A stretch of DNA of 64,000 nt from contig NW_027362764.1 in assembly GCF_046119375.1 (NCBI RefSeq), forward strand, positions 134,478,001 to 134,542,000, in the 5' to 3' direction. The notes below the pieces were generated by a model. That model was not told the origin of the DNA and ran no database searches. It saw only the letters and a program-made list of their open reading frames with translations. Positions within the stretch are counted from its first letter, which is position 1; each line of letters starts with the position of its first letter. This stretch comes from Phyllobates terribilis. Taxonomy: Eukaryota. Both the position numbers and the translations under genes were made by a program. Below, in pieces: positions 2,049 through 40,854 of the stretch.

Positions 2049-4403
2049 AGGGACTCTGTCAGTGCAGAATTACTGTGCAAACCAAGTACAGGCACTCGGT
2101 GCACTAAGGCGTGGCCAAATGTTTAAGTGCATCTTCCCACCTGCTTGTTTTCCCTCAATCTCTGCCCCCCTCCTTCTTTGATTGACAACTCTGGCTTCTT
2201 ATAGTCAAAGATGGGCAGAGAAAGATGTAAAACAAATTGGTGGGAAGGTGCACTTAAACGATTGGGTCTGCCATAGGAATGTGGACTGTCTTACCCTGTT
2301 CCTGCCCCTGAAGACAACAATCACATTGTGTGAATAATGTCATGCAGTTTTACATGTAATAGTGATGTGGGTCTTATATAATGTGTTACGGTAATGTGCA
2401 GCATATAAATGTGTTATATAGCATGTAAAGTGTTAATGTATAATGTGAGTAGTTTATAGTGCATGTGACGCGCCCCTGGGCCTGTGTCGCGCTGCGTTGC
2501 GCATGCGGGAGCTTACCCGGAGCCGGATCTCTTGAGGGTTGTAGTCTCGTGGCGGTGATCCGGTCCATGCCCAGGGAGTCAGACTAAGTGGCGCTGTATT
2601 AGCGGTAGATGTTGGACGACTACGCCACCCGTTGAGTACAGCTAAGGAGCTGCTGCTGCAGGGCAGACCACTGAGGCCGGTGGTAGGATTGTGCAGCGTG
2701 ATAGTATAACCCCCAACGGGAGGGGTATGGCCTCAGGGCAGCCGACGTGGATGATGGGGGTAGCAGGAACCACTCAGAGACGGTACGGTGTAGTTCAGGG
2801 TCTTTACTGGTGACAACGATAGACCCTCCCGGAGTACTGGCTAGCGATTGGGGCCTGGTCAGTCCTTGAGCAAATGGGATCTCCCCTGGCCAGGCGGAGT
2901 TGTAGGCCTCCCAAAACTAACGATACTCTTCTGGCTACCTTGCTAGAAGCGGGTATAAGTAGCCCACGTCCCTGAGTGTACCGTGTGGTGCTCACCCGTA
3001 TGACCGGTGACTCGGGGCCTTCTAGTAGCTTCCGCTCCACGACGGCGGTGCTGGTCCCACGCGTGTGACCGTGCCTTCGGGTTTCTGGGCCAGAGGACCT
3101 GAAATCCCCTGCCTGACGGATTCTGCTGCTGGGTAGGAGTTAGTCCCCACAGCCTCGGACTCCGGGTCCGGTAAGAAATCTTCTCAGTCAGGGCGAGCTC
3201 TGCAGCTGCCAGCCCCTGACTCCTTGTAACACTGCTCCCACAGAGCTCCTGTTGGTTCTTCCCATAGCTGCTTCTCTTCTCTGTCTCTACTTCTGGCATG
3301 GCCCAGGAGCTGGGCCCAGCCGGGGCCACAGCTCCCTGTCAGCCCTCCTGGCTGAACTCTCCCTCTGAACTTCCTAACCCTGCCTCAGCCCCAGGTTTAT
3401 ATAGGGGACGTTCTTCCCCTCCCAGGACTGGGCAGGAGGTGTGGCATGCATAGGATTCCTGACCAAGAGACCTCCCACCTGCTCTCAGACATAACATTGC
3501 TGTTACTGTGGAAACCAGACCCCTGGGGTGCCACACATGGTAAGCATAGGATTAGCTTTAGGATAGCATAAGTACGGTTTATATAGTAAGTGGTTTAGCA
3601 ACAGTATAGGACATAGGATAAGAACAATAGGTTTAGTCTGTAGGAGAGGAAATAGTTAATGATAGCACTAGACCAGTGGGTGGGAACTAGTGTTAATAAA
3701 GGGGGGCACTTCCTGCTAGTTTGTGGTTAGAGAAGTACAGTGTCAAGGTCAAGTTCAGGTGCAGTGGGCTGCTAGGGGCAGCATGGGCCAATCGTTTGAG
3801 GCAGTTGGAGGCCATACTGATATCCCTGATGAACATTCCTGTAACGTCTGAAGCCTAGGGCTCGGGACAGGTACCAAGCAGCGGGCCTGGTCTTCTGACA
3901 TCTCGAGGTCAGTTGACGTGGAATTATGTGGGGGGCAGGTGGTCAGTCCTGGGTGCACTGCTGATGTGGACAGGAAATCCCTGAGGCTGATGGAGTCAGC
4001 GGGATTAGGGGTAGTCCAGGACAAATGAGTAACAGGGCTGAAGAGGTACTATACTAAGGAAGGAACAAATATGAAATGTTGTGCTCTATCCCACATCACC
4101 ACCTGATGCACTTGAATTGACTAGTAAACGTTTGCCTGTTGTAAAGAGCTAGGTGTCCCCTGAATTGTGTGGGGTGGTTCCTGAGGATGGAAGCCTAGAG
4201 GCAGCGGAGGCCTGTGGCCTACAAGTGAGTGTGATGCACCGCATACCCGACAGCACACTGGGACTGGGACACTGTTTGTCTGGAAAGTGCTAGAGTGAAA
4301 CCGGACAGCAGCTCGGTCATGACTACCGCTCTGCTGCACTTTACACTGCCATGATGCACCGACCGCATGTACTTGGTTTGAACTTTCTTTCTGTGCTGAC
4401 AGA
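2049..4403. mobile_element. T2/Kolobok-like MITE split by ~2 kb of younger insertions
   Basis: TTAA+AGGGACTCTGTCAG...CAAACCAAGTACAGGCACTCGGTGCA at left; inverse arm TGCACCGACCGCATGTACTTGGTTTGAAC...CTGACAG at ~4355-4403. Confidence 0.6.
2466..3535 (-). mobile_element. Solo LTR, family X
   Basis: Reverse strand TGTGGCACCCC...GGGGCGCGTCA; TSD CATG at 2462-2465 and 3536-3539. Confidence 0.9.
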
Positions 4404-5969
4404 ATGGAATGTCCTATGGATGCGCCATTTCTGGGGCGGCTGACGGCTGGTGTTTCTAGCCTGGGAGGGGGCCAATATTCATGGCACCCTTCCTGGGCTA
4501 TTAATATCAGCCCCCAGCTGTCTGCCTAGCCTTTGTTAGCTATTAAAATAGGGGGGACCCCACGTCATTTTTTTTTTGCTTCCCCCATTTTAATAGTTAG
4601 CAAAGGCAAGGTATTCAGCTGGGGGCTGATATTAGTAGCCTGGGAAGCTCCATGGGTATTATCCCCTTCCCAGGCTTCAAACATCTGCCCCAGCCGTCTG
4701 CTTAACCTCCGCTAGAGACTAAAATTATCGGGAACCCCACGCCAATTTTTTTTTAAATAAATCCTTTATTTTAACACTAAATGACAAGTACAGTAACCAA
4801 CACTGTCACTGTACTTATTATATATGTGACTGACATGTTTCTATTAGTGTTGAGCGAGCATGCTCGACACTGCTCGGTACTCGCCCGAGCATCTCACTAC
4901 TTGGGATGCTCGGTGAGCACCGAGCATTTTCGGTTTACTCGGGTGGGAGCTCGGGTCTCCGCCCTGCATCTTTGGCGCTCTTTACAGAGCCAATGAACAT
5001 GCAGGCATTGCCAGCCAGTCACTGTAATGCCGCAGCCATGTTGGTTGTGGGCATTACAGTGATTGGCTGGCCGCACAGCGTCACCTCGAGTATTTAAAAC
5101 CGGGTACCGCCATCTTGGACACAGTCGCTCCGGATCAGACAGTGTAGGGAGAGTGCTGCTGAGCTAGGGACAGATTTATAATGCGAAATAGGTAGTGCAG
5201 GGTCTCTAAGGCCTGCAAAATCAAACAAACAGTCCTTCTAATATCCATCCCATATAGACAAGGACTTGCACGGGGATAGTTGCAAGTCTGCATCTTCTGA
5301 TGTGGCAAGGATCACTTGATCACTTGTGATGGGCACACTTTTAGGCAGTGACCTGGGTGTCAGAGATGCTTCCAGGGGTCTTCCCCACGCTGTTCCCATG
5401 TCTTTTCAGCACTGTATGCATGTGTCACACAGCACATGGCCAGATAAGGTTGTAAAATGTTAAAATGACATTTCCCGGGGAATGCACTTGTCACGGGTTG
5501 AAAGCAATACAAAAGTGCAAAAATGCATAAAAAATGCTACTTGTGAACATAGCCCAAGGTGTTGAGGAGTATTTTTGTTTTTGGTTATTTATTTTACCTT
5601 ATACACAAGTCTTTACCCTGGAAAGGAAGTTCCTTAACATATTTCACAGGAAAACAGTTTCAGTTTCGTTTTTGAATGTTTTATTGTGGGCCCGTAAAAG
5701 TGTCTTAATACCTCTGACCACGTTGTTGACCTCAGTGACCTGGGGGTCAGAAATGCTTCCTGGGGCGATCCCCATGTCATTTGAGCACTGTCACTATCGT
5801 TTTGGGCACTTTTAGGCTTTCTACAGACTGCCGGGGGTGCCACCGCAAAAATGCTCGGGTCTCCCATAGACTAACATTGGGCTCGTTGCTCGGGTCGAGC
5901 ACCCGAGTATCACGGTGAGCTCGGCCCGAGCTTTGAGCACCCGAGCATTTTAGTGCTTGCTCAACACTA

Positions 5970-6736: not shown

Positions 6737-6789
6737 TGTAAATGAAGTAAAATAGCTTACACTCGCACTATCAATGGCAAAAGGGTAAT

Positions 6790-10409: not shown

Positions 10410-10532
10410 CAAATGCTGCAAGCAAGGAAAAACGCTGACTGCCCTATAGTATTAGCCTCATGGTATTGTAGATCAGATAAGAAGCTCCTACATACACAAT
10501 CCAAGCGGATCACTGCAAAGTCACTGAATACT
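10410..10532 (-). CDS. Candidate host-gene exon (123 nt, phase 2-2), product unknown
   Basis: TATATAACAG acceptor, TTG|GTAATC donor, one open frame VFSDFAVIRLDCVCRSFLSDLQYHEANTIGQSAFFLACSI, non-repeat context. Confidence 0.35.
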
Positions 10533-12455: not shown

Positions 12456-13469
12456 TGTGGCGCCCCTGAGGGTTCGGTCGCCACAGAGATATTGCATCTC
12501 ACCCAGAGGTGTGGTATCTCACTCTCAGGTAAGGAAGGAGTATGGCTCAGGACTAGAGATGAGCGTTGTTCTACTCGAACTGTTCGCCAATCTCAAATTC
12601 GAGCTGTTTTGGGCGGTGTTCGAGCCGTTCGGCGAGCACGAACAATTTGAGAAAAATTCGGCTGTTCGAGGTTATGTTCGATAACTGTTCGTGCACCAAA
12701 ATCATAACTGGATTTTTTCTCAGTAATGATGAAAATTAATGTTAATACGCAGTTTGAGTGTACAGCGGGGTGGGGGGAGGGGCAGGGGATGGATCTCTGC
12801 AGGAACAATGAAGATCTCCATTTTTTTTTCTCTTTCCCACATTTACAGTGGGGAGGTGCAATCTGTCAGCCTATCAACAGCGCACACACGGAGCGAAGTG
12901 CTTTTTTTCACACAAGCAAGGGCATGTGTCATTGGCAGTGTATGTCACATGTCCTTGCCCTATAAGACCAAGCCATTTTCCCCGTCGCCACCATTTTCTC
13001 ACTGCTGCAGCTGCGTGTTAGACGGCACCGCTGTTGCTGTGTGCGCTATACCTTGTTAATTTCAAGCCAATTTTCGCACAAATATACAGATAGCTTGGGA
13101 GTAGGGAATAGTTGTGATTGCAGTCCTTTTAAGGACTAGGTTACAGCATTTCCTACGACTTTTATCAGGGAGGTCTGTGCTCTTAAATAGATAGGTTGTG
13201 GGAGTAAAGACTAATTGTAATTGGAGTCCTTTTCAGGACTAGGTTACATGAGTTCCTATCAGTTTTTGCCAGGCAGGTCTGTGCCAGTGCTGTGCAAGTT
13301 TTTTCACAGCATTTGGCTGAATCTAGCAAAGCTAATCCTTTTTGGCCTATTGCAGAGTGTGTTAGTCAGTGGAGTAGCCTATCTGTGTTGCAAGATATAC
13401 CACCTGTGTATAGAATACCAATTTTTTTACTGCACCTAGTGAAGTAAAATCTTTTGGGCATAGCATCAT

Positions 13470-15990
13470 TCTATTAGTCCATCTATACTGACCTCCATCA
13501 GGTTGCAAATTAAAACTAATTTTTATCTGCATCTACAGTACCTCTGAAAAAATATTTGGGCTTCTAGCAGTGTGTGGGACTTGTTCTATTAGTCCATCTA
13601 TACTGACCTCCATCAGGTTGCAAACTGAATATATTTTTTTCTGCATCTACCTCTGAAAAAATATTGGGCTTCTAGCTGTGTGTGGGTCTTGTTCTATTAA
13701 TCCATCTATACTGACCTCCATCAGGTTGCAAACTGAATATAATTTTTTTCTGCATCTAGCTCTGAAAAAATATTTGGCCTTCTAGTAGTGTGTCGGACTT
13801 TCTCTATTAGTCCATCTATACTGACCTCCATCAGGTTGCAAATTAAAACTAATTTTTATCTGCATCTACAGTACCTCTGAAAAAATATTTGGGCTTCTAG
13901 CTGTGTGTGGGACTTGTTGTATTAGTCCATCTATACTGACCTCCATCAGGTTGCAAACTGAATATATTTTTTTCTGCATCTACCTCTGAAAAAATATTTG
14001 GCCTTCTAGTAGTGTGTCGGACTTTCTCTATTAGTCCATCTATACTGACCTCCATCAGGTTGCAAATTAAAAATAATTTTTATCTGCATCTACAGTACCT
14101 CTGAAAAAATATTTGGGCTTCTAGCTGTGTGCGGGACTTGTTGTATTAGTCCATCTATACTGACCTCCATCAGGTTGCAAACTGAATATATTTTTTTCTG
14201 CATCTACCTCTGAAAAAATATTTGGCCTTCTAGTAGTGTGTCGGACTTTCTCTATTAGTCCATCTATACTGACCTCCATCAGGTTGCAAATTAAAACTAA
14301 TTTTTATCTGCATCTACAGTACCTCTGAAAAAATATTTGGGCTTCTAGTAGTGTGTCGGACTTTCTCTATTAGTCCATCTATACTGACCTCCATCAGGTT
14401 GCAAACTGAATATAATTTTTTTCTGCATCTAGCTCTGAAAAAATATTTGGCCTTCTAGTAGTGTGTCGGACTTTCTCTATTAGTCCATCTATACTGACCT
14501 CCATCAGGTTGCAAATTAAAACTAATTTTTATCTGCATCTACAGTACCTCTGAAAAAATATTTGGGCTTCTAGCAGTGTGTGGGACTTGTTCTATTAGTC
14601 CATCTATACTGACCTCCATCAGGTTGCAAACTGAATATATTTTTTTCTGCATCTACCTCTGAAAAAATATTGGGCTTCTAGCTGTGTGTGGGTCTTGTTC
14701 TATTAATCCATCTATACTGACCTCCATCTGGTTGCAAACTGAATATATTTTTCTGCATCTACCTCTGAAAAAATATTTGGCCTTCTAGTAGTGTGTCGGA
14801 CTTTCTCTATTAGTCCATCTATACTGACCTCCATCAGGTTGCAAATTAAAACTAATTTTTATCTGCATCTACAGTACCTCTGAAAAAATATTTGGGCTTT
14901 TAGCAGTGTGTGGGACTTGTTCTATTAGTCCATCTATACTGACCTCCATCAGGTTGCAAACTGAATATATTTTTTTCTGCATCTACCTCTGAAAAAATAT
15001 TGGGCTTCTAGCTGTGTGTGGGTCTTGTTCTATTAATCCATCTATACTGACCTCCATCAGGTTGCAAACTGAATATATTTTTTTCTGCATCTACCTCTGA
15101 AAAAATATTTGGCCTTCTAGTAGTGTGTCGGACTTTCTCTATTAGTCCATCTATACTGACCTCCATCAGGTTGCAAATTAAAACTAATTTTTATCTGCAT
15201 CTACAGTACCTCTGAAAAAATATTTGGGCTTCTAGCAGTGTGTGGGACTTGTTCTATTAGTCCATCTATACTGACCTCCATCAGGTTGCAAACTGAATAT
15301 AGTTTTTTCTGCATCTACCTCTGAAAAAATATTGGGCTTCTAGCTGTGTGTGGGTCTTGTTCTATTAATCCATCTATACTGACCTCCATCAGGTTGCAAA
15401 CTGAATATATTTTTTTCTGCATCTACCTCTGAAAAAATATTTGGCCTTCTAGTAGTGTGTCGGACTTTCTCTATTAGTCCATCTATACTGACCTCCATCA
15501 GGTTGCAAATTAAAACTAATTTTTATCTACATCTACAGTACCTCTGAAAAAATATTTGGGCTTCTAGCTGTGTGTGGGACTTGTTGTATTAGTCCATCTA
15601 TACTGACCTCCATCAGGTTGCAAACTGAATATATTTTTTTCTGCATCTACCTCTGAAAAAATATTTGGCCTTCTAGTAGTGTGTCGTACTTTCTCTATTA
15701 GTCCATCTATACTGACCTCCATCAGGTTGCAAATTAAAAATAATTTTTATCTGCATCTACAGTACCTCTGAAAAAATATTTGGGCTTCTAGCTGTGTGCG
15801 GGACTTGTTGTATTAGTCCATCTATACTGACCTCCATCAGGTTGCAAACTGAATATGTTTTTTTCTGCATCTACCTCTGAAAAAATATTTGGCCTTCTAG
15901 TAGTGTGTCGGACTTTCTCTATTAGTCCATCTATACTGACCTCCATCAGGTTGCAAATTCAAAATAATTTTTTTCTGCATCTAACCCAGC
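13470..15990. repeat. Tandem array of ~22 units (107-115 bp) with higher-order organisation
   Basis: CCATCAGGTTGCA recurs every 107-115 bp; three unit variants alternate. Confidence 0.95.
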
Positions 15991-16099
15991 CAATAGTTTT
16001 GGCCTAATACCACAGTTTGGCCACTCAGCTCTGCTCGGTTACCATCCATTGTTTTTTTGTGCAAACAACTCCAGAGTTGTGAATTAGTTAACCACCAAA

Positions 16100-19000
16100 A
16101 TGAGTGGAAAAAGGCCTGCTGCTGGTGGAAAGGGGAATAGGCGTGTTGGGAAGGGGAAAAAAGGTTGTGTCCGTGGGGTAGGTGTTAAAGCAACAGTAAC
16201 ATCTGCAGAAGAAAGACCATCTTCCAGCCAAACTAAAATGTCTACTTCTTTTAGCGGACAATGTGATAAGATCCCTTTCTTACGGCCACGCCAATCGCTA
16301 CAAATTCCAGATGAGTCACAAAAACAGCAGGTGCTTCAACGGATATCAAGTGCTCCTTTAAGTGGGCTCTCCTCCACATCAACTTCAACATCACAAATAC
16401 TCCAGTCCTCAAAGGTGTCACCCAAATCGCACTTGCTTCCTCACAGCTCCCAAATCTCCAGCTGCCCGTCTGAGTATGAGGTAGAACAGATGGTTGAGTC
16501 TGCAGAGCTGTTTACTCATACTATAGCCTGGGAATCAGAGGTCGACTCCAGCGCTTCTGTGAATCCAGACGAGGAAATGATCTGCACTGATGCCCAGAAT
16601 CTTTATGAGTCGGATCCAGGACCAGACGCAGAAGGTTCTGACCATAATGTAGACCCTCATTCCCAAACTGTAACTCCTGTTGGTGGAGACAATGAGGAAG
16701 ACGATGATAAGACTCAAATACCTGATTGGAGCGACAACTTTAGTTTTTTGTCAGGGCAGGAACAGGTTGGCTCTGAGGACGACGGGTGTGATAACGCACA
16801 GGGTGATGATGATGAGGTCGGAGATCCCACTTACTGTCAACCCACAGTCAGCCAAGAGATGAGGTCAGCAGAGGAGGTGGAGGAAGATGCTAGTGACGAC
16901 GAGGTCAGGTTGCGCCTTCCTGGACAGAGACGTAGTACTGGAAGCACGTCAACAACTGCATCCTCAAACACAACTCTGCCTCTCACCACAAGTCGTGGTG
17001 GCTCTTCAGGTCGCATGGGTGCTAAGCCTTGCATAGCCTGGGCATTTTTTCAGATCGATAAAGATGACCCAACTCGTGTTATCTGTAACATTTGTCAGCA
17101 AAAGCTAAGTAGAGGCCAAAAAATACATAGTTTGAGTACTTCATGCATGAACCGGCACATGGACATGAAGCATAAGTTGCAGTGGGAAGCTCAGTGTGCT
17201 ACAATGCGGCCTAGCCGGCCGGGCCAACCACCGTCTGCCATATCTTGTGCATCCGCGGCCTCTTCATCCTCTGTGACTGGGGGGACAGCAGTCACACCTG
17301 TTTTGGGGCGCAGACCTGCCACCTCTTTACCCGCAACAGCCAGCGTGATTGGCAGGTCATCATTTTCTTTGGAGGTGGTAACACCAGCTGGTGTTGAGCG
17401 CTGTCCGACATCGATAGCACCACCTTTGGATGAAGGCAACCTAACATGTCCGCCTGCATCTTCCTCACAGACCGGCAGTTTGCCGGGGACACCCTTATCA
17501 ACCCCGTCTAAGCACAATAGCCAGCCCTCGGTCCCTCAGATGTGGACAAGTAAAAGACCATTTCCTCCTAGCCATGATAAAGCTAAGAGGTTGAATTTCA
17601 CCATCTGCAAGCTCTTGGCTACAGAAATGATGCCTTTCCGCCTGGTGGACACAGAGGATTTTCGAGACCTTATGTCCGTCGCAGTGCCCCAGTACCAGAT
17701 GCCCAGTCGGCACTACTTCTCAAAGAAAGGTGTGCCTGCGCTCCACCAGCATGTCGCACACAACATCACCGCTTCTTTGAGAAACTCTGTGTGTGACAGG
17801 GTGCATTTCACCACAGACACTTGGACGAGTAGGCATGGACAGGGGCGTTACATGTCGCTGACTGGGCACTGGGTAACTATGGTGACAGCAGGACAAGGGG
17901 CTGCTGTCCAAGTCTTGCCGTCCCCACGAGTTGTGCGTCAATCCTCTTTATGTCAAAGTTCCTCCACTGCTTCTGCCTCCTCAACCTCCTCTCGGTCTTC
18001 CACCTGCACCCAAAGCCTGTCTGGTCATGCCACAAGCTTTCTAACTGCGCAGAAGGGATCCTGCACACCTCCTTACTATGCTGGCAGTAGGGCTCAACGT
18101 CATCAGGCGGTTTTTACATTGAAATGTCTGGGAAATGTGAGTCACACAGCTGAGGAGTTGTGGTCAGCTCTGGAGAACCAATTTCATGAATGGTTGTCTC
18201 CACTGGACCTGAAACCAGGGAAGGCCGTGTGCGACAATGCTGCAAACCTGGGTGCGGCCCTTCGCCGGGGCAATGTCACACACGTGCCTTGTATGGCTCA
18301 CGTGTTGAACCTGGTTGTCCAGCAATTTTTAGCCCACTATCCCAGACTAGATGGCCTTCTGCAGAGGGCACGGTCGCTGTGTGCTCACTTCCGCCGTTCG
18401 CATCCCGCAGCTCAGCGACTTACATCTCTACAGAAGTCGTTGGGCCTGCCACTTCACCGGCTAAAATGCGATGTGCCTACCCGGTGGAATTCAACTCTGC
18501 ACATATTGCAGCGACTGTGGCAGCACCGACAAGCCCTGGTGCAATACGTTCTGACGTATAGCCTGGGCCAACGAGATTCAGAGGTGGGGCAAATCACGCT
18601 GGAGGAGTGGTCTCAGATCAGGGACCTATGCACCCTTCTGCACAGTTTTGAAATGGCGACGAAGATGTTTAGTGCTGACGATGCCATTATCAGCATGACT
18701 ATTCCGGTGATTTACATGCTGGAGCACATGTTAAACAGAATTCGGAGTCAGGTGGTGGCACAAGAGGAGGTGGAGGAAGTAGAGGAGGAGGAGTTGTATG
18801 CGGAAGGGCTAACATCTGCAAGGTCCAGAAGGTCGGCAGCACCAAGGCGGCAGGCATGTGAGGGTGGGGGAGATGGTTTTACCAGGGCGCATGGTAGCAG
18901 CCAAACTAGTGAGGAAGGTGCAGGAGCCCAGGAAGAAGTGGAGGACGAACTGATGGAAGACTCATCAGATGAGGGAGACCTTGATCACATTTCTGTTGTG

Positions 19001-19801: not shown

Positions 19802-20127
19802 AAGCTTGATGATTGGTTAAAATCACCCTACCAAACGTTTTAAGCTTTCAAATTACTAATCATGTTTATCTGTATCTTGACTGGAAAATAATTTGGGCTT
19901 TGTAGCAGTGTGCAGCACTGATCCTATTAGGCCATCTATAATAAGCTCCACCAGATTTAAAATTAAAAATAATTTTTAGCTGCATCTAGCCCGGAAAATA
20001 ATTTTGGGGCTCCGAGATGCGCAAGACACATAAGTGCCTTCTTGCTGCACTACCTGCAGCATGACCCTCATATTGTCAGAATTCGAAGTAATCATGACTA
20101 CTGGGTTGCCACACTCTTAGATCCCCC

Positions 20128-21500: not shown

Positions 21501-21599
21501 TACATGTGCTTTTCCACAAAACACCAGCGGTTCACGTAGTGAATCTTACAGTTCTAACTTGCCAACCGTGGTCTGTATGGAATTGTTCAATAAAGGGCC

Positions 21600-23398: not shown

Positions 23399-23504
23399 TT
23401 ACAAATTTTTAACTGCATCTAGCCCAGGAAATACTTTGTGCCTAGTAGCAGTGTCTGCTAGTCAGCGGATTATCCCGGCTGTTAAGCAAGCTACACCACC
23501 TGTA

Positions 23505-23775
23505 GTTTAGACACTTAATTTTTTCAAAGGAAATGCTTCGGGACCATGGGATACTCAGTGAAGAGCATCAGGAGGCACCCCAAGGCATAGGGGCTGGGAC
23601 TGGCAGTAGGATGCCATGCGGTGGACAGCCGAGCTCGATCCTTATAAAAGCTTTTTAACTGCAGCAGCTTTAGTGGACGCTACTGGAGCTGGAATTACGC
23701 GGCTGCTGGCATGAGACTTGCCCTCCAATAGATCCTTGTAAATGGATTTAAAGTGTATTCATTCAAATTAGAGAG
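23505..23775 (-). pseudogene. Diverged 18S rRNA fragment (helix-18/V4 region)
   Basis: GCTTTTTAACTGCAGC...GGAGCTGGAATTAC(C)GCGGCTGCTGGC..AGACTTGCCCTCCAAT.GATCCT...GGATTTAAAGTG is the reverse complement of a conserved eukaryotic 18S segment; similarity continues to TAATTTTTTCAAAG.AAA.GCTTCGGG. Confidence 0.85.
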
Positions 23776-26700
23776 ACAATTTAAATTAAAAAGCTTAGAG
23801 CTGCCTCCACCACAGGGGGGCTCGCTCGACCCACCAGCGGACAGGCACCAGTATTGGGAGAGGGGGGCTGGCCATCAGGGTTCACCGCGGCTCTGGCACA
23901 AACCCGGCGACACGGAGGTGGCACGGGCAGGAGCGGACTGGCCGTGTCGGCTTCTCACTTTTTGGATTTTAGAAGGGCATCACATGCCTATATCTGTGTC
24001 TCCCCCTCCTTTTACTCCTCCACCTCTTTTATTTTCGCATGACTATATGTACTTGTCACTTTTCCATGTGTTAGTTGTGTCTTCTGAGCAGTTTGTCAGC
24101 TTTTGGACACCTTTGAAGGTGTTTTCTATGTGTTTCTATGTGTTTTTGTTTGCCTGCCATTGGTTTTAACGGTGTTCGAAGGTGTTCGACGAACAGTTCG
24201 ACGAACAGTTCGGCGAACACACGGGTGTTCGACGAACCGAACCGAACTCGAACACTACGGGGGTGGCTCAACACTACTCAGGACCCTAACACTACATCCA
24301 CTACACCACATTTCCGGGGGACAGGGCGACAATGCTCCTACGGGAGAGCACAACTGTCCCTGATCCCTGGCTGGAGTGGGGGGGCGACCACCTAGAGAGG
24401 GGGAACTAGGTAGTGGATGGGGTGGAGGACGTAGATCCTGGGAGCACTGAGTAAGAGGTATAAAAGTAAGGAACCATTTTGGTTCAAAGAGAGAAGTGAG
24501 TTCAGTCAGAGGAGGAGAGTGACAGGAGCTGGGGCTCTGTACGAGCTCTGCTCCACAGGCAGGCCGAGTCGCTAGGCCTGAGCCTGAAGGAGAAGGAAGG
24601 GGAGCAGGAAGGCTCCAGGACAGGAACCGAAGGGACCCTAGGGGTACGGGCCGTGCAGCTGGCACCCATATGCCCGCCGCTGCCAGGAGGTGGGGGGGTC
24701 AGGCCAGAAGAAGGGAACCGGATCCCTCAACCAGCAGAGACTACAGGGCTCAACTGGGAACCGGAGGCTGCAGCACTTCAAGTACAGCAAGCCGTCCACA
24801 CCAGCCACCAGGAAGGTAGCCACATAGGGCCAGGGGACGGAACAAACGTCGCCCGCCAAGGCCCGAGGACACTGGACAGAGGTGCCGCTAGGTGTGAGGT
24901 ACAAGAAGAGAGGCCAGAGAGGACACACTGAAGGGGGTCCTGCTAAATGCTCCAGAGATACCTGAGGGTCGACCGAGCTGCTTACTGCGTGAGCACAGGA
25001 CGCCGTGGGCTCTTACACTGGCCCTGTAAGTGGAACTGCTTAACTGTGAGTATAAGATCTGGGACTGCATCATCTGGACTCTGTGATTCTTCTTACACCG
25101 CTACACCTTGCACCATCACCCCCATCATCCATACCCACTGCCCTGAAGCTACACTCTTCCTGTGGGAAGTTACACTACCTTGCTGCGCATATCACCAGCT
25201 TCAGTGGACTGCTCCGCAGAGGCGGTTCCCAATAACCGCATTCCACAGGTGGCATAGTCGGACTATTTAAACCAGACACACATAGACTACCCTGGTTTGA
25301 CCGCCCTGGGTCACGGACCAGGTCACCGCCACAGTGACTACAACCCCCAGCATTTACAAGGCCCGGCTCCGGGTATCCCCACGGCCTAGGGGGCGCGTCA
25401 ATAATAGATAATGATACATGGTCATCCTATGCTATGATCGGGAATGCGTCCATGGGTAATGTGAGTGGCAACCCCGACTGCAAAAGCAGTCACTAGCCTG
25501 AGAGAATACAGGCAGAAATAACTAAGGTTTTTAAAGCTGTCTGACCATCAGTGATCACAATGTTACGCCATGTCCTAATGATAGTATTGTCCCCGAGGGC
25601 GAGGAGACTTGTGAAGACCATGCCATAACAGGTCCACCATCAATGAGCTGCCCTGTGGTGATCAGCTGTTATTGAAGAGTCAGCTGATGACAAGTCCTAA
25701 GGGAAGGTCAATGCAGAGAAAACAAAGCATTGCACACCGAGTTGTCTCGATAATGTATGAATAAACCAAGTCCTTCAGGGGCCCAGTGGTTTACTGCTCT
25801 GCTTAATATCTTACATAACCTAACATGGATTTTCTTAACTGACAACCCCTTTAAGAACATGTGCATAATGGAAAGACTTCACCTCTCCCTACATGTCTAT
25901 TCTTGTAAATCAAGTAAATATTATATAGTAATACAGAAATTTTATTATATAAATATTATAGTAAATGTTTAATAAAATATAGTAAATTTTGTAAATATTT
26001 TCCATGAAATAATTCTGCATCATCTTTTCTGAAAACTCCGCATTCTGTGGCTCTTCTGTTACTTCTAGAAATGTATGAATACATTAACTAGCTGTTACTA
26101 TGGTATTTGTCAAAGGGGTGTGTCCCTACAGAGTCTGAGGCTGCAGACACATCCGTGTGTCACGGTGCGTAATGCATGGACCCTCCGTAGATCTCCTGAC
26201 CCAGACTCAACAATCTCATAGGCTTATATCAGGCTGTCAAATTTGGGTCAGGAAACCTGCATCCAGTCTGTGCATCAGTCAGTTCTTGGACCGCCAAACG
26301 CTCTGCACTGATTGAGGTGTCAAGGCCCGCTCCCATGGCCATATTTTATGCTATGAGTGCGATCCGACAAAACATCAAATTGCGCTGGGACCAATGTTAA
26401 TCTATGGGGCCGTGCATATGTTCGATTTTTTTTCTTTGGACAGATCCAGTCCGAGGAAAAATTTTCTTCATGTCCGAATTTAATCTGATATTCAGAACAC
26501 ACTCAGCCATTCAAGTCAATGAGTTCATGGAAAGCATTGGACTACACTCGGATGACATCTGACTGAGTGCAGTCCGATTTCCATGGATGGACAGAATGGA
26601 GAGACTATATGCTCATATGCTTCTAGCAGGGTAACACCTTCAATTGGTTATACCTAGTTATCAATTTATTCAGAAACTACAAGAAGGATTTACAGAAGAA

Positions 26701-27747: not shown

Positions 27748-29326
27748 AGGGGTTGTCTGGCCTTGGGATACAAGTCTACAGTCTCTCTATGTGACTGCAG
27801 GCTTGTGAATCCTCACAGAGTGCAGTGTGCTTGCTGTCAGGATTCTCCAGTGCCAGAACCAAGAGCGGGCAGTCATGTGATGGCAAGAATGTGAATTGCA
27901 TATGTGGCGCCCCTGCTGGTTCAGTCGCCACAGAGGTACTGCATCTCACCCAGAGGTGTGGTATCTCACTCTCAGGTAAGGAAGGAGTACTGCCCGGGAC
28001 CCTAACACCTGCATCCAACACTACACTACTCCAGACCAGTAGGAGGGGCAAGATGTGTCGCTTTCCTGCTGAGCCCTGTCCCTGGCTGGAGTGGGGGGAA
28101 CCAAAGTAGGGGGAACCATGTAGTGGGTGTGGGTGGACTAAGTAAATCAGGGGAGCACTTGTTAGGAATAGTATAAAGAGGGAAGCCATCTTGGGTGTGG
28201 GAGTTCAGTCAGAGGAGGACAGTGAGAGGAGCAGGAGCTCTGTAGGAGCTCTGCTGAGGAGGAGGGCCTAGCCCGAGAGGCCCAAGACTGAAGAGAGAGA
28301 GGAGCAGGAGAAAGGCTCCAGGAGTGAAGAAAGGATCCCAGGGGTACGGGCAGTGCTGGAGGCCACCCATATGCCCGAGTCTACCAGGCGGTGGAGGGAT
28401 CAGGTCGCAGAGGGGACCGGCCCCTAACTAGTGAGAATTACAATATTCAACTAGGTAACCGGAGGCTGCAGCATTTCAGGTACTGCAGCCTCAAGCCACA
28501 TCTATCTCACCAAGAAGGTGGCCATAGAGGACCCAGGGGACAGAGAAGACGTCGTCCGGCAAGGTCCGCGGTCACTGGATTGGGACACTAGGTGTGAGGT
28601 GCAGGGAGACGGCCAGAAGGAACACACAGAAGGGGGTCCCGTTATGTACTCTGGAGGTACCTGAGGGTTGGCTGAGCCCCTGCCCGGTGAACGCAGCACG
28701 ATGTGGGAAGTTATGATCTGCAGTTGTAACCAGGAGCAAAGTAAGAACTGTGAGTAAATCCGGAAGACTGCACCCCACTGTCTCCGTCAATTATTACTGC
28801 TGCGCCATCACCCCCTCCACTACACTGCACCACGAGTGCTACTTCTATAACAGCAACATCTACACTGCCCTGGAGCTAAGCTCTACATGTGGAGAGCTAA
28901 ACCAACTCTGCTGCATTAACACCAGCTCCAGAGGACCTGCTCCGCAGCGGCGGCTCCCTATAGCCGCATACCACAGGTGGCGTCACAAACTGTATATAAG
29001 AACTTTAATTCCCCTGTAAATATCCCCTTTTTATTGACCGCCCTGGGTCACGGACCGGGTCACCGCCACTGTGACATCTCCCCTAGCAACGACCGGCTCG
29101 ACACCGAGTACCCCAGGGCCCAGGGGGCGCGTCACATACTTCCAGCCACATTCTGACTTGATGTATCCGGCCTCTCTCATTTCATTTGTGTTGAATGATG
29201 CAACGCACATCTAGTCGGCACTTGATCGTATATATGCGCATGCACCCGCCAGATCCCAGAGAATCCTAACAGTGAGGGCACTGCGCACTGTGAGGATTCA
29301 CAGTACCTCAAGGCCAGACAACCCCT
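27748..29326. mobile_element. T2/Kolobok-like MITE interrupted by a solo LTR
   Basis: AGGGGTTGTCTGGCC / GGCCAGACAACCCCT+TTAA. Confidence 0.75.
27903..29134 (+). mobile_element. Solo LTR, family X
   Basis: TGTGGCGCCCC...GGGGCGCGTCA; TSD CATA at 27899-27902 and 29135-29138. Confidence 0.9.
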
Positions 29327-32235: not shown

Positions 32236-32500
32236 GCACGGTGGCTCAGTGGTTAGCACTGAAGCCTTGCAGCACTGGGGTTCTGGTTTCAAATCCAACC
32301 AAGGACAACATCTGCAAAGAGTTTGTATGTTCTCCCCGTGTTTGCGAGGGTTTCCTCCAGGTTCTCCGGTTTCCTCCCACATTCTAAAGACATACTAATA
32401 GGGAATTTAGATTGTGAGCCCCAATGGGGACAATGCCGATAATGTCTGTAATGAGATGTGGAATTAATGGTGCTAAATAAGTGAGTAAAATAAATAAATA
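32236..32500 (+). mobile_element. tRNA-derived SINE (V-SINE-like)
   Basis: Box A GTGGCTCAGTGG, box B GGTTTCAAATCC, core GGTTTCCTCC.GG.TCTCCGGTTTCCTCCCACA, (TAAA)n tail. Confidence 0.8.
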
Positions 32501-33628: not shown

Positions 33629-34631
33629 TGACGCGCCCCTGGGCCTTCTGTGTCGTGCGGCATCGCGTGCACGGGGGCTTACCCGGAGCCGGATCAGATG
33701 GGGGTAGTAGTCTCGTGGCGGTGACCCGGGTCCGTGCCCAGGGAGTCAAACTAAGTGGCGAGTCTATTAGCAGTAGATGTTGGATGACTACGCCACCCGT
33801 TGAATGCAGCTTTGGAGCTGCCGCTGCAGGGCAGACCGCTGAGGCCGGTGGAAGGATGGTGCAGCGGGGATGGTATAACCCCCAACGGGAGGGGTATGGC
33901 CTCAGGGCAGCCGACGTGGATGATGGGGGTAGCAGGAACCACTCAGAGACGATGCGTGTAGTTCAGGGTCTTTACTGGTGACAAAGATAGACCCTCCCGG
34001 AGTACTTGCTAGCGATCGGGGCCTGGTCAGTCCTTGAGCAGATGGGATCTCCCCTGGCCAGGCGGAGTTGTAGGCCTTCCCAGCTAACTGTACTCTTCTG
34101 GCTACCTTGCTAGAGGCGGGTAAAAGTAGCCCACGTCCCTGAGTGTACCGTGTGGTGCTCACCCGTATGGCCGGTGACTCGGGGCCTTCTAATGGCTTCC
34201 GCTCCACGATGGCGGTGCTGGTCCCACGCGTGTGACCGTGCCTTTGGGTTTCTGGGCCAGAGGACCTGCAATCCCCTGCCGGTCGGTTTCTGCTGCTGGG
34301 TCTGGGTTAATCCCCACAGCCTCGGACTCCGGGTCCGGTGGTAACTCTTCAATCAGGGCGAGCTCTTCAGCTGCCAGCCCCTGATTCCTTTTAGCACTGC
34401 TCCCACTGAGCTCCTGATCTTTCTTTCCTATGCTGCTTCTCTTCTTCTCTCTGTACCCTTTTCCCTCTCTTAACCCTGCCTCAGCCCCAGGTTTATATAG
34501 GGGAAGTTCTTCCCCTCCCAGGACTGGGCAGGAGGTGTGGCATGCATAAGATCCCTGACCAAGAGACCTCCCACCTGCTCTCAGACATAATATTGCTATT
34601 ATTGTGGAGACCAGACCCCTGGGGTGCCACA
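33629..34631 (-). mobile_element. Solo LTR, family X (same subfamily as 2466-3535)
   Basis: Family termini; TSD TGTG at 33625-33628 and 34632-34635. Confidence 0.9.
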
Positions 34632-36648
34632 TGTGCATGCAAGTGTTAACATGATTTCTTACTTTTACATTTGTGTTCTTTTACTTTATAGGGTTTTCGG
34701 GTTTTAAAAAAAAATTGATGGCTATGAATGTATAATTGGTAATGGCCCCTTCCACTAAAATACTGCAGGTAAGGATCAGCTGCTCTGATGGATATACAAT
34801 AAAAGGGCTGTGGCACTCCAATACTGCTGATCTGTGGGGGTCCATCCAAGGACAGCTACAGCTTCAATCTGATTTACCTCACTCCATTGCTGGAATCACA
34901 GTCACACAGCTCAGTACTGCTGTATAGTGTCTTCCATGCTGTTGCTTCTGTCTGTTTTGCTCACCAAAAAAGTAATTTCCCAAATTCAATCAAGATGATT
35001 TTGCAAAAAATAAGTACAGCCCATTAAAAGTCTTAAGAGCAAAGTGAAAGTTTAGACTACAAAATTCAAATGAACAAGAATTCAACCACGGGTCAGTATT
35101 ATTTTTTATTAAACTGGTCTTCAGCAGACAGGTGACTATAAAATGGTGTTACTTAACAAAGAAAAACATTTCACGCTGTCAGCAATGGCACCACATAGAA
35201 GAGAAGTGCCATAAGACCTGAGAAAGAAAATAATTTCTTTACACAAGAAAAAAGTGATACAAAAATGTTAAAAAGATAGAACTGCATCCATTTCATAGAG
35301 ACATCCAGGCCTACCACGGAAGTTAACACCTAAACAGGAACGTCTTCTGATGAGAAGGATTGAAGAAAAGCAACATTTCATTGATGATATCATGAATTCA
35401 CAGATGTATTTGTGGCGCCCCTGAGGGTTCGGTCGCCACAGAGGTACTGCACCTCACCCAGAGGTGTGGTGTCTCCATTCTCTCAGGTAAGGAAGGAGTG
35501 CTGCACGGAACCCCAACACCTACATCCAACACTACACTACCCCAGGCCAGCAGGAGGAGCAAGACGCAATGTAGTTTTCTGCTGAGCTCTGACCCTGGCT
35601 GGGGTGGGGGGAACCCAAAGTCAGGGGGAACCAGTAGTGGGTGTGGGTGGAGGAAGAAGTTCATGGGAGCACTCATACAGTAAAGATATAAAATAGGGAA
35701 GCCATCTTAGGGTGGCAGTCTAGTAGTTGTTGAACAGCTTGGGAGCAGAGTCTCTCTAGGAGCTCTGCTCCATTTCAAGGGCCCAGGACTGAGGCCCAGG
35801 AGGGGAGCAGGGAGTAGGCTCCGATCTACTGAAGGGATCCTAGGGGGTACGGCGAGTGCAGATGGCACCCGTACACCCCGAACCTGCCAAGTGTCAGCAG
35901 GATCTAGGCCGCAAGAAGGGGATCGGCCCCTGGCCCAGTCGTGCAGCTTCAAGCCTCGGCTGGAAAAACCGGAGGCTTCAGACTTCTATAGCAGAAGCCA
36001 AACTCTCACTTCAATCCAAAGAAAGGTCAAGCAGGTCTGTGCAACTCCAACGGACAGGGGGGACCCCGCAGCACCCAAATAGGATTCACAGTGAGAAGCG
36101 CAGGGCAGGAGGGAGTAAAGACCCAGCGTGAAGTCGGTCTAGGAAGGTACATATGAAAGTGGGGTTCTGCCAGGCACACCTGAGCTGCCTGAGGAAGGAC
36201 TGAACCCCTGCCCTGTGAACGCAGTGTGACGCGGGAGGCTTGCACCAGTACTGTGCACCTGAGGAACTTGAACAGAACTGTGAGTAAACTCGGATGACTG
36301 CACTGAACTGCCTCCGCTCCTTCATTTCGACGGTACCTTTTCCCTCCCTGCACTACTACGCCCAGCACACCTCCTCCATCTTTCCTTACACTGCCCTGAG
36401 GCCTGCTCCACCTCTGGGGAGCCATTCCATCTTAAGCTGCCCTATCATCTGCCTCAGAGGACTGCCGCAATGCTGGTGATCCTCACCAGACACCACAGGT
36501 GGCGTCACGACAATTTTCCCCAACCAAAATATTCCCCCTTTTTGAGTGACCGCCCTGGGCCACGGACCGGGCCAGCCACCGTGATATCCCCCAGCAACCA
36601 GAGGCCCGGCTACCGAGCACGCCACGGCCCTGGGGGCGCGTCATCTTC

Positions 36649-36666
36649 TGGCGTCACGAGCAGGAT
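36649..36666 (+). promoter_or_regulatory. Primer-binding site, tRNA-Ser(CGA)-type
   Basis: TGGCGTCACGAGCAGGAT, 5 nt after the LTR; complementary (about 1 mismatch) to the vertebrate tRNA-Ser(CGA) 3' end as recalled. Confidence 0.8.
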
Positions 36667-37321
36667 GCGTGACCAGCCCGTTATCAGTGGGTATTGTGTG
36701 CCTAAGGACTGTTTTACTACATTAAATGTGGTGCCCACCCCAGAAGAACGGGCGCCATTATGTGCGTGTTCAGAGACAACAATATGGAACCTCCCATCGT
36801 GGGTCGGGTGCCAGAATGGCGCCAAAAGCATACCCTGCCCCTTGCACCAGTGGCCGTCACAGGGAGTGACCGACAGCAAATCGCCATGGGACCGCCCCCA
36901 AAAGAGGAGAGGAGGAGGAGGAGAAAAGGAATGGCGACAGGGTGTGGTCTCGACCCGTCTAGCCAGACCGCATCCGGCAGCCAAGATGGAAGGGAGCAAA
37001 AACCAAGCCTCTGCCTCTGGCCTGCCACTGCACCGAGCCACCCCCTCCACCATGGAGGAAAATATGGAGAAGCTGTCCCCGGAGGACGTGGAGTTCCTCG
37101 AGAGCGAGGTCCTCGAGCTGGGCCAGCAAGTGGAGCGAGCCCAGCAGGCAGCGGTCACCCGGTGGAAAAGTGAGCTGCTGGAGAAACTAGCCGCCCGCCG
37201 GAAAGTGAGACCGGATGCCAGCAGCCGCACACCAGCCCCGGCGGAGCTCGCAGGAAACCAGGAGGCCGTGTGGGACACAGGAGCAGGTAGGAGAGAATCC
37301 CCAGCCCCGACCTGCTCCTGA
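36665..37321 (+). CDS. Internal ORF, 5' part (218 aa from the ATG; predicted coiled coil)
   Basis: MEENMEKLSPEDVEFLESEVLELGQQVERAQQAAVTRWKSELLEKLAARRK heptad-like segment; same frame as the downstream ORF. Confidence 0.5.
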   Translation: MRDQPVISGYCVPKDCFTTLNVVPTPEERAPLCACSETTIWNLPSWVGCQNGAKSIPCPLHQWPSQGVTDSKSPWDRPQKRRGGGGEKEWRQGVVSTRLARPHPAAKMEGSKNQASASGLPLHRATPSTMEENMEKLSPEDVEFLESEVLELGQQVERAQQAAVTRWKSELLEKLAARRKVRPDASSRTPAPAELAGNQEAVWDTGAGRRESPAPTCS

Positions 37322-37345
37322 GCCTCCTGCCCCAGCCCCCGCCAT

Positions 37346-38191
37346 ATGCTGCCACACTCTGGCCGGAACCGTTATGCAGCCCGGAACCTCCACCCCCGGG
37401 CGCGGAACCCCGAAAAACCCCCACCAAGGGCCTTCCTGGAACCCTCGCCTCTGAGCGCTGCACCGGAGGGTTCCCCATACAGCGTCCTTCCGGAACCTCT
37501 GGTCCAGGGCGCTGAAGCTACGGGCCTGTTGCTGGGAGCCCTCCCGCCGCCTCCGTCATTTGAGTGGATCTACGGCGCGCCGGTCTTCGACTGGTCCGCC
37601 CGTTACGAGGATCAGCAGCCGTGCCCGCTCCTCCCAATACCAGCGCCCCCGGTTGCCTGCCCCGGCGGAGAGGAGTTCTGCTGGGACAACCGGGGGGGGA
37701 ATCTGATGGGATTCTCCCAGGAGACAGAGGCCACCGCCCAGCAGAGTAAGGAATTCTGCCGGCGGGAGCTCCGGCAATTGAAGAGGGAGCGACGCGCGCG
37801 GGAAGCGCGCAATGAATGCCTGGAGGCCCGTGACAAGGCCGCCAAGGCACAAGTCCGCCAGGCGGAGACAGCCAACCCCAGCCCCCGTGAGGAGGGCCTC
37901 ATTGTCAAATTTAATCTCAAGGCTGGGTGGGGCTTCATCCGTAGTCCCGAGTTCAACAGGGACATTTTCGTCAACCGGCGGGATGTGGAGCCTGAGCTGG
38001 AGGAAGGCCATCCTGACCGGAACCTGTATCCGGGAGACCAAGTCACGTTCACCCGGCATCATGGTGAGCGTGGCTGGTATGCCCTGCAAGTGTACCATGC
38101 CAACAAGGATGAACTGCTGCAGGAAGTCCCTCGTGACCCGGCTGGGTCAGGGAAGAACGAAGAGTACCCTAGGAGGGGTCCCCAGTACTAG
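37346..38191 (+). CDS. Internal ORF with a C-terminal cold-shock domain
   Basis: EGLIVKFNLKAGWGFIRSPEFNRDIFVNRRDV...LYPGDQVTFTRHHGERGWYALQV (37889-38092) aligns by eye with Y-box CSD; RNP1-like GWGFI, RNP2-like DIFVN. Confidence 0.85.
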   Translation: MLPHSGRNRYAARNLHPRARNPEKPPPRAFLEPSPLSAAPEGSPYSVLPEPLVQGAEATGLLLGALPPPPSFEWIYGAPVFDWSARYEDQQPCPLLPIPAPPVACPGGEEFCWDNRGGNLMGFSQETEATAQQSKEFCRRELRQLKRERRAREARNECLEARDKAAKAQVRQAETANPSPREEGLIVKFNLKAGWGFIRSPEFNRDIFVNRRDVEPELEEGHPDRNLYPGDQVTFTRHHGERGWYALQVYHANKDELLQEVPRDPAGSGKNEEYPRRGPQY

Positions 38192-38754
38192 GGTAGTACT
38201 GGACTGCACATAACTGAATATAGTCACCCGTCCGGGTGCTGAGTTTATCATGTTGTTTTTTTATAATATGTTTCCTTAGGTACCTGTAAGGGTATAGAGA
38301 CAATAGGGTAGAGGACAGTGATCTCCCTACAAACTTTCCATTGTAAATAAGTTTAGCACTTCTTAAAGTGCATCCTATTGGTTTTATAAGTGCAATCCAT
38401 ACTTCAGAACAAAAACCCGTTTGGCGTGGCGGAAGACGAGGTCCAGTATCTGGATCATCTATGCCCTGCAGCCATGCCCAGGGCCTACGTTGAGGGTTTG
38501 CGGACGGGTCCCTCATTCTGCTGCTGTTGCACCCTGGTGCAGAAACTCGCTTGAAAATGTTTTATATGAAAATTGTTTTATAGGAATAAGTGCTCTTAAG
38601 ATATTTTATATTCCATAATGTAACATTTAAAGTGATGTGCCTCCCAAAAAGGGAAGAATGTTTTTACAGTCTTATATGCGAATGCATTCTAAAAACTTTG
38701 CATGTCATATATCCCTGTTTTTGCTTTGTTCCAGCCCGCGGACGTGCTGTGTTT

Positions 38755-38767
38755 TACCGGGGGGGAA
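38755..38767 (+). promoter_or_regulatory. Polypurine tract
   Basis: ACCGGGGGGGAA abutting the 3' LTR TGT. Confidence 0.75.
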
Positions 38768-40854
38768 TGTGGCACCCCTGAGGGTTCGGTCGCCACAGAG
38801 GTGCTGCACCTCACCCAGAGGTGTTGTGTCTCCCTTCTCTCAGGTAAGGAAGGAGTGCTGCACGGAACCACAACACCTACATCCAACACTACACTACCCC
38901 AGGCCAGCAGTTGGAGCAAGACGCAATGTAGTTTTCTGCTGCGCTCTGACCCTGGCTGGGGTGGGGGGAACCCAAAGTCAGGGGGAACCAGTAGTGGGTG
39001 TGGGTGGAGGAAGAAGTTCATGGGAGCACTCATACAGTAAAGATATAGAATAGGGAAGCCATCTTAGGGTGGCAGTCTAGTAGTTGGTGAACAGCTTGGG
39101 AGCAGAGTCTCTCTAGGAGCTCTGCTCCATTTCAAGGGCCCAGGACTGAGGCCCAGGAGGGGAGCAGGGAGTAGGCTCCGATCTACTGAAGGGATCCTAG
39201 GGGGTACGGCGAGTGCAGGTGGCACCCGTACACCCCAAACCTGCCAGGTGTCAGGAGGATCTAGGCCGCAAGAAGGGGACCGGCCCCTAGCTCAGTCGTG
39301 CAGCTTCAAGCCTCGGCTGGAAAAACCGGAGGCTTCAGACTTCTATAGCAGAAGCCAAACTCTCACTTCATTCCAAAGTAAGGTCAAGCAGGTCTGTGCA
39401 ACTCCGACGGACAGGGGGGACCCCTCAGCACCCGAATAGGATTCACAGTGAGAAGCAGGAGGGAGTAAAGACCCAGCGTGAAGTCGGTCTAGGAAGGTAC
39501 ATATGAAAGTGGGGTTCTGCCAGGCACACCCGAGCTGCATGAGGAAGGACTGAACCCCTGCCCGGTGAACGCAGTGTGACGTGGGAGGCTTGCACCAGTA
39601 CTGTGCACCTGAGGAACTTGAACAGAACTGTGAGTAAACTCGGATGACTACACTGAACTGCCTCCGCTCCTTCATTTCGCCGGTACCTTTTCCCTCCATG
39701 CACTACTACGCCCAGTGCACCTCCTCCATCTTTCCTTACACTGCCCTGAGGCCTGCTCCACCTGTGGGGAGCCGTTCCATCTTAAGATGCCCTATCATCT
39801 GCCTCAGAGGACTGCCGCAGCGCTGGTGATCCTCACCAGACACCACAGGTGGCGTCACGACAATTTTCCCCAACCAAAATATTCCCCCTTTTTGAGTGAC
39901 CGCCCTGGGCCACGGACCGGGCCAGCCACCGTGATATCCCCCGGCAACCAGAGCCCCGGCTGCCGAGTACCCCACGGCCCTGGGGGCGCGTCATATTGCT
40001 CTTTATTGAAAGAGAAGATGCTACCATCACTCCATGCCCTTGGTAGACGTGCACTTTTAAAACATGACAATGAACCAAAACACACATTTACGGCCACTGT
40101 TACATTTCTGAAGAAGAAAGTGTGAAAGTGATTCAGTGGCCAAGTATGTCTGCTAATATGAACCCAATTGAACACCTATTGGGAATTCTGAAGAGAAAAG
40201 TTGAGCCTCACTCTCCATCCAGCATCCAGGCTCTAAAAGAGGTCATTCTTGAAGAACAGAAAAAGATAGATGTTGCAGTATGTCACCAAATTGTTAATAG
40301 CATGTCTAGAATACTTGGTGCTTTCCTTAAAAATCATGGAGGAATACTAGATGTAGCATTATTTGGTGTAGGGTGTATTCATTTTTGCATCAACTAATTT
40401 GAGTAAAACTTTCTATACTGAAAGTTATATTATTAACTTTACTTTCATGTTGTATGTTAAAAAAAGTGTTCTATGTAACTTAGTCTTGTCAAAATTTTGG
40501 AAACAGTTCTTGTGTTCAGTGACATATTGATTAAAATCTTATTTTTCATAGGGGGTGTACTCATTTATGCTGAGCACTGTATGTATCCTCTTGAGGTTTG
40601 GAAATGTACTCCTACTATATGGTTGTCTTTCCATTTATCTTCACAATTTCTTCTTGCATTACAAAAGTAGATCATAATCTAAACTTTAGTTAGAACCTGT
40701 GATTCTTACTATGCCATATGAAAACCTACATGCACTCAAGTCTCCTTGTGTGTTTTCCCTGCATGTGAGTTTCCTAAACCCCTATTACATGCACAATTGC
40801 ATTCTATCATAATCTTCACCGAACGTCCACAAATAATATGACAAGTGGCAGCAA

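Follow-up and report, generated by a model that had tools for sequence, protein, structure and literature searches.

What is a piece of primer-binding sequence doing inside a long terminal repeat (LTR)? The question is raised by a retrotransposon family in a 64,000-nt stretch of Phyllobates terribilis DNA (contig NW_027362764.1, positions 134,478,001-134,542,000; hereafter the window), where the family is represented by a full element and five solo LTRs, each with a 4-bp target duplication. Within the LTR lies a 10- to 14-nt copy of the start of the primer binding site (PBS), here called M1. A second motif, M2, lies about 60 to 100 nt before the LTR end, is complementary to bases 1-12 of tRNA-Ser and points to the 5' strand of the intact tRNA; it was missed in the first-pass annotation of the window. 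Searches of the 10.6 Gb genome showed that M1 and M2 co-vary with the PBS, are conserved and are inherited with the LTR. What is known of the way a folded tRNA is caught and opened up at the PBS, and of how a primer is chosen, comes mostly from laboratory work in which primer swaps were forced on a few elements; here, two isoacceptor versions of a three-site leader exist as natural material in tens of thousands of copies.

All seven motifs listed in the first-pass annotation were recovered at the claimed places and strands, and M1 is present in 7/7 LTR ends of the window. It starts 144 to 167 nt before the LTR end, roughly as annotated, the earlier figure of 135 to 150 nt being slightly low. 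As a string of letters M1 is borderline: a loose pattern with one mismatch allowed gave 27 matches in the window against 18.4 expected, and 4 of 100 shuffles gave as many. It is position that makes the motif non-random, because it is carried by all seven window LTR ends and by 168 of 174 distinct LTR ends (≥ 9 of 11 letters; reversed-motif control, 2 of 174). These 174 ends came from 224 sequences, located with an anchor blind to M1, M2 and PBS, and 60 of them have no PBS behind; their loci were mostly chosen by PBS or U5 (unique 5' region) patterns and are not a random sample.

In the full element M1 is of the CGA type and occupies 36500-36510 (plus strand), directly after CA and two G, and again 39850-39860 (plus strand) in the 3' LTR. 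The corresponding CGA-type M2 copies are at 36575-36585 and 39925-39935 (both plus strand), the first with 11 contiguous predicted pairs, one of them G-U, to bases 1-11 of tRNA-Ser(CGA). Upstream are a TATA-like box (35685-35693, plus strand), a putative promoter found in the same relative place in other subfamilies, and AGTAAA (36283-36288, plus strand), a putative poly(A) signal 340 to 390 nt before the LTR end in 9/9 LTRs examined. The steady places of these two signals suggest that M1 and M2 both lie in U5 of the RNA. AGTAAA overlaps a splice-donor-like GTGAGT (36280-36288; GTAAGT in locus L160), an overlap that may suppress polyadenylation in the 5' LTR.

The type of M1 follows that of the PBS, as the first-pass annotation had proposed. 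An AGA-type PBS is paired with an AGA-type M1 in 44 of 45 junction rows and a CGA-type PBS with a CGA-type M1 in 41 of 44; the types therefore agree in 85 of the 89, four have no scorable M1 and none is crossed. The full set of 95 junction rows includes duplicates (L097 is L158) and near-copies (L061-62, L104-105 and L111-118). Genome-wide, exact patterns gave 48,803 AGA-type and 2,344 CGA-type junctions of LTR end and PBS, or about 50,000 primed copies, beside 3 and 0 matches to the crossed patterns; the three are one small deletion and two chimeras with LTRs from different subfamilies. A subfamily Y2 (CGA-type M1 and M2, AGA-type PBS) was considered as an evolutionary intermediate and ruled out, as L219 and L220 are chimeras with the 3' LTR of another subfamily. 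In both, a CGA-family 5' LTR is joined to a 3' LTR of the small AGA subfamily Y1 at common PBS-like letters. The M1 type reveals the primer type of solo LTRs.

The match of M1 to the tRNA stops at base 11 (AGA type) or base 14 (CGA type), with 1 to 6% still matching at base 15, and the AGA span is exactly CCA, discriminator and acceptor strand. Identity of M1 among subfamily representatives is 97% (8 AGA) and 86% (19 CGA), against only 63 to 65% in the next 30 nt, and no joint drift away from the tRNA was seen in the 168 copies. M1 is not a tandem duplication of the PBS, being within the LTR, shortened and without duplicated flanks. A splice acceptor at M1 was ruled out, AG being missing in 42 of 43 AGA copies.

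The serine tRNAs of the host account for both types. The first-pass annotation had matched the motifs to the ends of tRNA-Ser(AGA) and tRNA-Ser(CGA); host genes called by ARAGORN (L128-L132 for AGA, L136 for CGA) give exactly the two 18-nt PBS types. They were found among 32 loci read from matches to tRNA-end patterns (12 of 71 and 20 of 222), in which ARAGORN called five Ser(AGA), one Ser(CGA) and one doubtful Ala gene. Most remaining loci, among them L125, L127, L134 and L144, are PBSs where copying of the tRNA, with its CCA, went on beyond base 18; these serine tRNAs are therefore the primers. In L125, L127, L134, L144 and L150 the PBS reaches the T-loop and variable arm of the tRNA, a record of plus-strand synthesis that ran beyond base 58, where it usually stops. 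Self-priming of the Tf1 type is ruled out, since M1 has the same sense as the PBS and the read-through copies prove tRNA priming. The AGA label rests on L128-L132, and this tRNA end may be common to other isoacceptors. The true PBS of the full element (36649-36666, plus strand, five bases past the LTR end) is of the CGA type, like its LTR motif, with one mismatch (17/18), in line with what had been annotated. Other serine PBS types were rejected as main families: they gave 293 matches, mostly point mutants among the 100 matches listed. A third serine tRNA type lies in a tandem array (L153; G000:C11, ~604.84 Mb onward) of genes called as Ser(TGA), Ser(CGA) and Asp, and this array seldom primes the family. 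ARAGORN found no tRNA in the window. That M1 pairs with the primer tRNA, as suggested earlier, is likely from its match to host tRNA-Ser 3' ends and its co-variation with the PBS, the pairing itself being predicted.

M2 changes with the other two sites. Of 174 LTR ends, 150 have M1 and M2 of the same type, one is crossed and 23 are mixed or unscored. When 19 windows of the tRNA were paired with U5, bases 1-12 gave the strongest duplex in all three groups, at a tight position, and were stronger than shuffles (AGA -16.3 versus -12.8; CGA -20.4 versus -13.1; Y1 -21.4 versus -12.9). The cognate tRNA beats the non-cognate one at M2 in 41/43 AGA, 26/35 CGA and 5/6 Y1 copies. In Y1, 12 contiguous predicted pairs are kept through two G-U, and in one AGA subfamily (13 of 45 AGA rows) M2 is also predicted to pair with tRNA bases 11-18, offered by neither M1 nor the PBS. 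A relic of a whole antisense tRNA between M1 and M2 was rejected, as bases 1-12 are the only part of the tRNA to stand out in every group; in CGA, bases 69-84 too exceed shuffles.

Is M1 copied anew from the primer? In six rows (five loci) the PBS is closest to the third serine tRNA; five of these rows, L155 and L156 among them, retain a CGA-type M1 and one has lost the region. Because elements primed by the third tRNA keep it, M1 is not rewritten each cycle, and the earlier proposal that the motif is templated by the primer is not borne out as a rule. Extension of M1 to the full 18 nt was seen in one exact match genome-wide, L213, a rate of rewriting of about 1 in 50,000. In its 5' LTR, M1 spans all 18 nt of the tRNA complement and is followed by normal U5 and the true PBS; its 3' LTR has an ordinary M1, and the target duplication matches. 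We infer that L213 arose by priming at M1 and plus-strand transfer between two cDNAs. The exact M1 context joined to a full PBS has only two further matches: in L214 the 5' LTR is deleted from M1 to PBS and the 3' LTR is full, and L215 is not readable as a single element. Productive second priming, also raised in the first-pass annotation, thus appears to be very rare, and neither of the two readable elements has a 3' LTR cut at the motif.

M1 is inherited with its LTR. In a tree of the sequence upstream of M1, Y1 falls among CGA copies, and the leader tree is a mosaic. M1 stands directly after CA and two G, resembling an old LTR end, in 27/35 CGA and 6/6 Y1 copies, and the present LTR end of Y1 resembles a captured CGA PBS start; for these two reasons M1 is likely to derive from an old LTR end and PBS internalised into U5. 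At the Y1 loci L216, L217 and L221-L223 the LTR ends in the first nine letters of the CGA PBS, followed by the AGA PBS; target duplications confirm this end in L216, L217, L222 and L223, and it looks like an old PBS captured as a new integrase end.

Similar sites recur elsewhere. A scan of metagenome contigs for the AGA PBS gave at least 115 loci, and the statements that follow hold among the matches listed. An M1 of 10 to 12 nt, 37 to 86 nt before the PBS, is present at six loci from four families (next-best M1 match 8, reversed control 7) that have no DNA likeness to the window and in which gag-like frames start. These four families appear to be unrelated to that of the window and gypsy-like. 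A strong M2-like site is also found in some families lacking M1. In L228, L234, L239 and L308, from other Ser-primed families, the LTR termini are partly complementary to the tRNA 5' end, with 1 to 12 of 200 shuffles as strong. Viral contigs gave 0 and 1 PBS matches in two scans. Unrelated families with and without the extra site add a natural comparison.

The reading we favour is that M1 and M2 together form a docking site in the RNA leader, which would hold both acceptor-stem strands of tRNA-Ser and then pass the tRNA 3' end to the 18-nt PBS; we put the chances of this at about even. M1 would lie on a tether poor in G, on the 5' side of a stem-loop that has the PBS as its 3' foot; in the window element a terminal U5 stem-loop with M2 in its inner loop is predicted at 36547-36643 (plus strand), its arms read from the sequence and tallied per copy. 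In free RNA, M1 may be held by M2 (as a pseudoknot) or by a local hairpin at about -11 to -13 kcal/mol, like the acceptor stem at -10. Exchange of strands with the tRNA would then yield about -20 from M1 plus -17 to -23 from M2, after which the PBS (-32 to -35) would take the tRNA 3' end and M2 would keep the 5' strand. Being shorter than the full PBS, M1 would not compete for priming. By mean computed duplex energy (kcal/mol), the acceptor stem stands at about -10, M1-M2 at -10 to -12, M1 bound to the tRNA 3' end at -19 to -21, M2 bound to the 5' end at -17 to -23 and the PBS at -32 to -35. In nested folds, a method blind to pseudoknots, M2 is unpaired in 72% (AGA) and 42% (CGA), M1 pairs with M2 in 0/43 AGA, 7/33 CGA and 0/5 Y1 copies, and M2 never pairs with the PBS. 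The window copy of the U5 stem-loop folds differently, with a stability no greater than that of shuffles. Contact with the 5' end of the tRNA is reportedly made in feline immunodeficiency virus (FIV).

A wider form of the same idea is possible but more tentative: several Ser-primed Ty3/gypsy lineages would have evolved a primer loader made of RNA alone. Its M1 and M2 would mimic the acceptor stem, open the tRNA by exchanging both strands with it and hand the 3' end to the PBS, and rare priming at M1 would retune the loader after a primer switch. If so, the rare rewriting of M1 from the tRNA would be a built-in way of retuning.

Several observations weigh against a docking site. Every pairing step is predicted. 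The cognate advantage of AGA copies at M2 is small (-16.3 versus -15.1), and their M1 is tied up in a predicted local hairpin in 33 of 43 copies. Bases 8-11 of tRNA-Ser are the first four PBS letters, so either half of M1 is able to pair with one half of M2, and part of the conservation of both motifs may reflect intramolecular pairing. M1, M2 and PBS lie within 200 nt and can therefore travel as a block. Two trees suggested several independent switches of type, but a single origin (monophyly) of the AGA-type M1 was not rejected by approximately unbiased (AU) tests (p 0.06 and 0.91, on trees with 5 and 7 of 91 rows left out), and the number of switches may be anything from one to three. L213, a single case, could have come from conversion at the DNA level, with the nearby PBS as donor. 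In the metagenome set 18 of 22 LTR-like Ser-primed families (44 loci) have no M1, so M1 is dispensable there, some having short upstream sequence; the two families with the closest gag (L234 and L277) are among them, and a clear M2-like site is present in only one of the four M1 families.

The alternative that survives best, although we consider it rather unlikely, is that M2 is a true contact for the tRNA 5' strand and M1 acts only within the RNA, where its pairing to M2 or to a local partner stops M2 from reaching the PBS, and resembles the PBS by descent. The M1-M2 duplex of about -11 kcal/mol in all groups, the local hairpin of AGA copies, the old-LTR-end context and the Y1 end would all fit. 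However, M1 retains the order of the PBS and not that of the tRNA 5' end, which would bind M2 better, and the CGA M1 match extends three to four bases past any M2 complement. The absence of joint drift and the rewrite in L213 also speak against it, as does the finding that holding M1 unpaired leaves predicted access to the PBS unchanged (0.26 to 0.25; 0.40 to 0.39). By the same folds, to which pseudoknots are invisible, M1 as a sink that frees the PBS has no support.

More doubtful still is that M1 is bound by a second tRNA molecule or by a fragment of the tRNA 3' end, acting as a decoy or sponge: it would shield the PBS, raise the local supply of primer or bridge two RNAs in a dimer. The predicted affinity of M1 for the tRNA 3' end would allow it, but a site of 10 to 14 bp is weak beside the 18-bp PBS (-20 versus -32 to -35), and M2 and the spacing would be left unexplained. 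An argument from seed matches against targeting by tRNA fragments was dropped, silencing being capable of seed independence (PMC12853362).

That M1 survives from an old PBS as a neutral relic, at times rewritten through mis-priming and moved together with the U5 block, appears very unlikely. The old-end context, the rare rewrite in L213 and trees compatible with a single type switch are what such a relic would leave, but M1 is conserved far above its flanks, ends in a sharp cut-off rather than in decayed 18-mers, is rewritten only about once in 50,000 copies and recurs in four unrelated metagenome families, and M2 has changed too. Least credible is a DNA element bound by a host factor, or by one that also reads the PBS: M1 is in both LTRs and in solo LTRs, its CGA type is like a cAMP response element (CRE) and PBS-binding zinc-finger proteins exist, but the CRE-like letters are lost in the AGA type, M1 is far downstream of the TATA-like box and the G-U-tolerant changes of M2 point to RNA.

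Contacts with the tRNA outside the PBS are common in retroelements: Ty1 and Ty3 have bipartite sites, and contacts occur in type 1 human immunodeficiency virus (HIV-1), FIV as well as Rous sarcoma virus (RSV; PMC5371799). In Drosophila gypsy a second site of 11 nt, which lies close to the 3' end of the RNA and serves the anticodon and T stems, is not required for cDNA synthesis (PMC1635307). Like Ty3 and gypsy, the present family is a Ty3/gypsy element with more than one primer-tRNA site, the extra one of about 11 nt; in those two the second site is found at the 3' end of the RNA and contacts the T arm or the anticodon arm, whereas here M1 is a repeat of the site for the CCA end, M2 is directed at the 5' acceptor strand and both motifs appear to be in U5. 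A bipartite PBS has its second site for a part of the tRNA other than CCA; M1 is for the same end, and M2 is predicted to take another part. M2 would resemble the multipartite PBS of Ty1 and the contacts of HIV-1, RSV and FIV as a U5 site that takes the tRNA strand freed by annealing; in computed duplexes it is a cognate-specific U5 complement to a part of the tRNA that the PBS does not cover. For Ty1, HIV-1, RSV and FIV the accessible text (PMC5371799) describes no same-end copy of the PBS, in contrast to the two natural isoacceptor versions found here in tens of thousands of copies. A literature search turned up no primer-tracking copy of the same PBS end in U5 and no such cold-shock family (see below); subscription papers, repeat libraries and supplements were outside its scope and may describe it. 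M1 and M2 are real, conserved, co-varying and recurrent, and would amount to a multipartite form of primer contact. The question of primer capture is directly testable with short natural RNAs.

The family has all the hallmarks of a Ty3/gypsy LTR retrotransposon (TG...CA LTRs, target duplication, PBS and polypurine tract). Interiors among 40 elements read over 9.9 kb are 5.3 to 6 kb in some and 2 to 2.6 kb in others. The autonomous relative L175 encodes a gag with weak PNMA and CCHC matches, then protease, reverse transcriptase (RT), RNase H and integrase, and the best solved match of its RT is Ty3 RT (E 3e-82). Because of this order and the likeness to Ty3, the family is Ty3/gypsy and not Gmr1, membership of which is ruled out as integrase does not precede RT; chromovirus membership is ruled out as the L175 pol has no Chromo match after integrase. 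Vertebrate Ty3/gypsy elements with PNMA-like gag (PMC11011659) likewise combine these features, but here the PNMA match is below the curated cut-off and the non-autonomous partners carry a cold-shock domain. In these short members (window 37892-38095; L176:1733-3541) a long low-complexity protein has the domain at its end, possibly acting as an RNA chaperone, and its frame is open for 600 codons in young copies.

The window element is one of the non-autonomous members (35411-39993, plus strand). Its LTRs (35411-36643 and 38768-39993) are 96% identical and, from ends and flanks, its target duplication is TATT. The open frame with the cold-shock domain (PF00313, E 1.4e-7) is at 37322-38191 (plus strand), parted from an upstream frame by an in-frame stop near 37320, and the polypurine tract, shared with relatives, is at 38757-38767 (plus strand). 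Three solo LTRs are on the minus strand, all with AGA-type motifs: 2466-3535 (duplication CATG; M1 2617-2627, M2 2541-2553), 22023-23234 (GAAC; M1 22173-22184, M2 22085-22098) and 33629-34631 (CACA; M1 33785-33795, M2 33707-33719). On the plus strand, the solo LTR at 27903-29134 (CATA) is of the CGA type (M1 28978-28990, M2 29065-29075), and that at 12456-25400 (ATAA) has about 12 kb of later insertions inside, an AGA-type M1 at 25250-25261 and an M2 at 25328-25341 in which both hexamer types are present, overlapped.

Within this split LTR, a long open frame at 16088-19801 encodes a hAT transposase with a BED finger. A young chromodomain Ty3/gypsy element with LTRs 99.3% identical and open gag and pol frames occupies 42921-47909. 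The minus strand carries the endonuclease-RT frame of a long interspersed nuclear element (LINE; 57242-59800) and a GDSL/OSK-like esterase frame (61731-62792), with a Tc1 copy between, and after this LINE/Tc1 stretch a 127-nt tandem array runs on to the window end.

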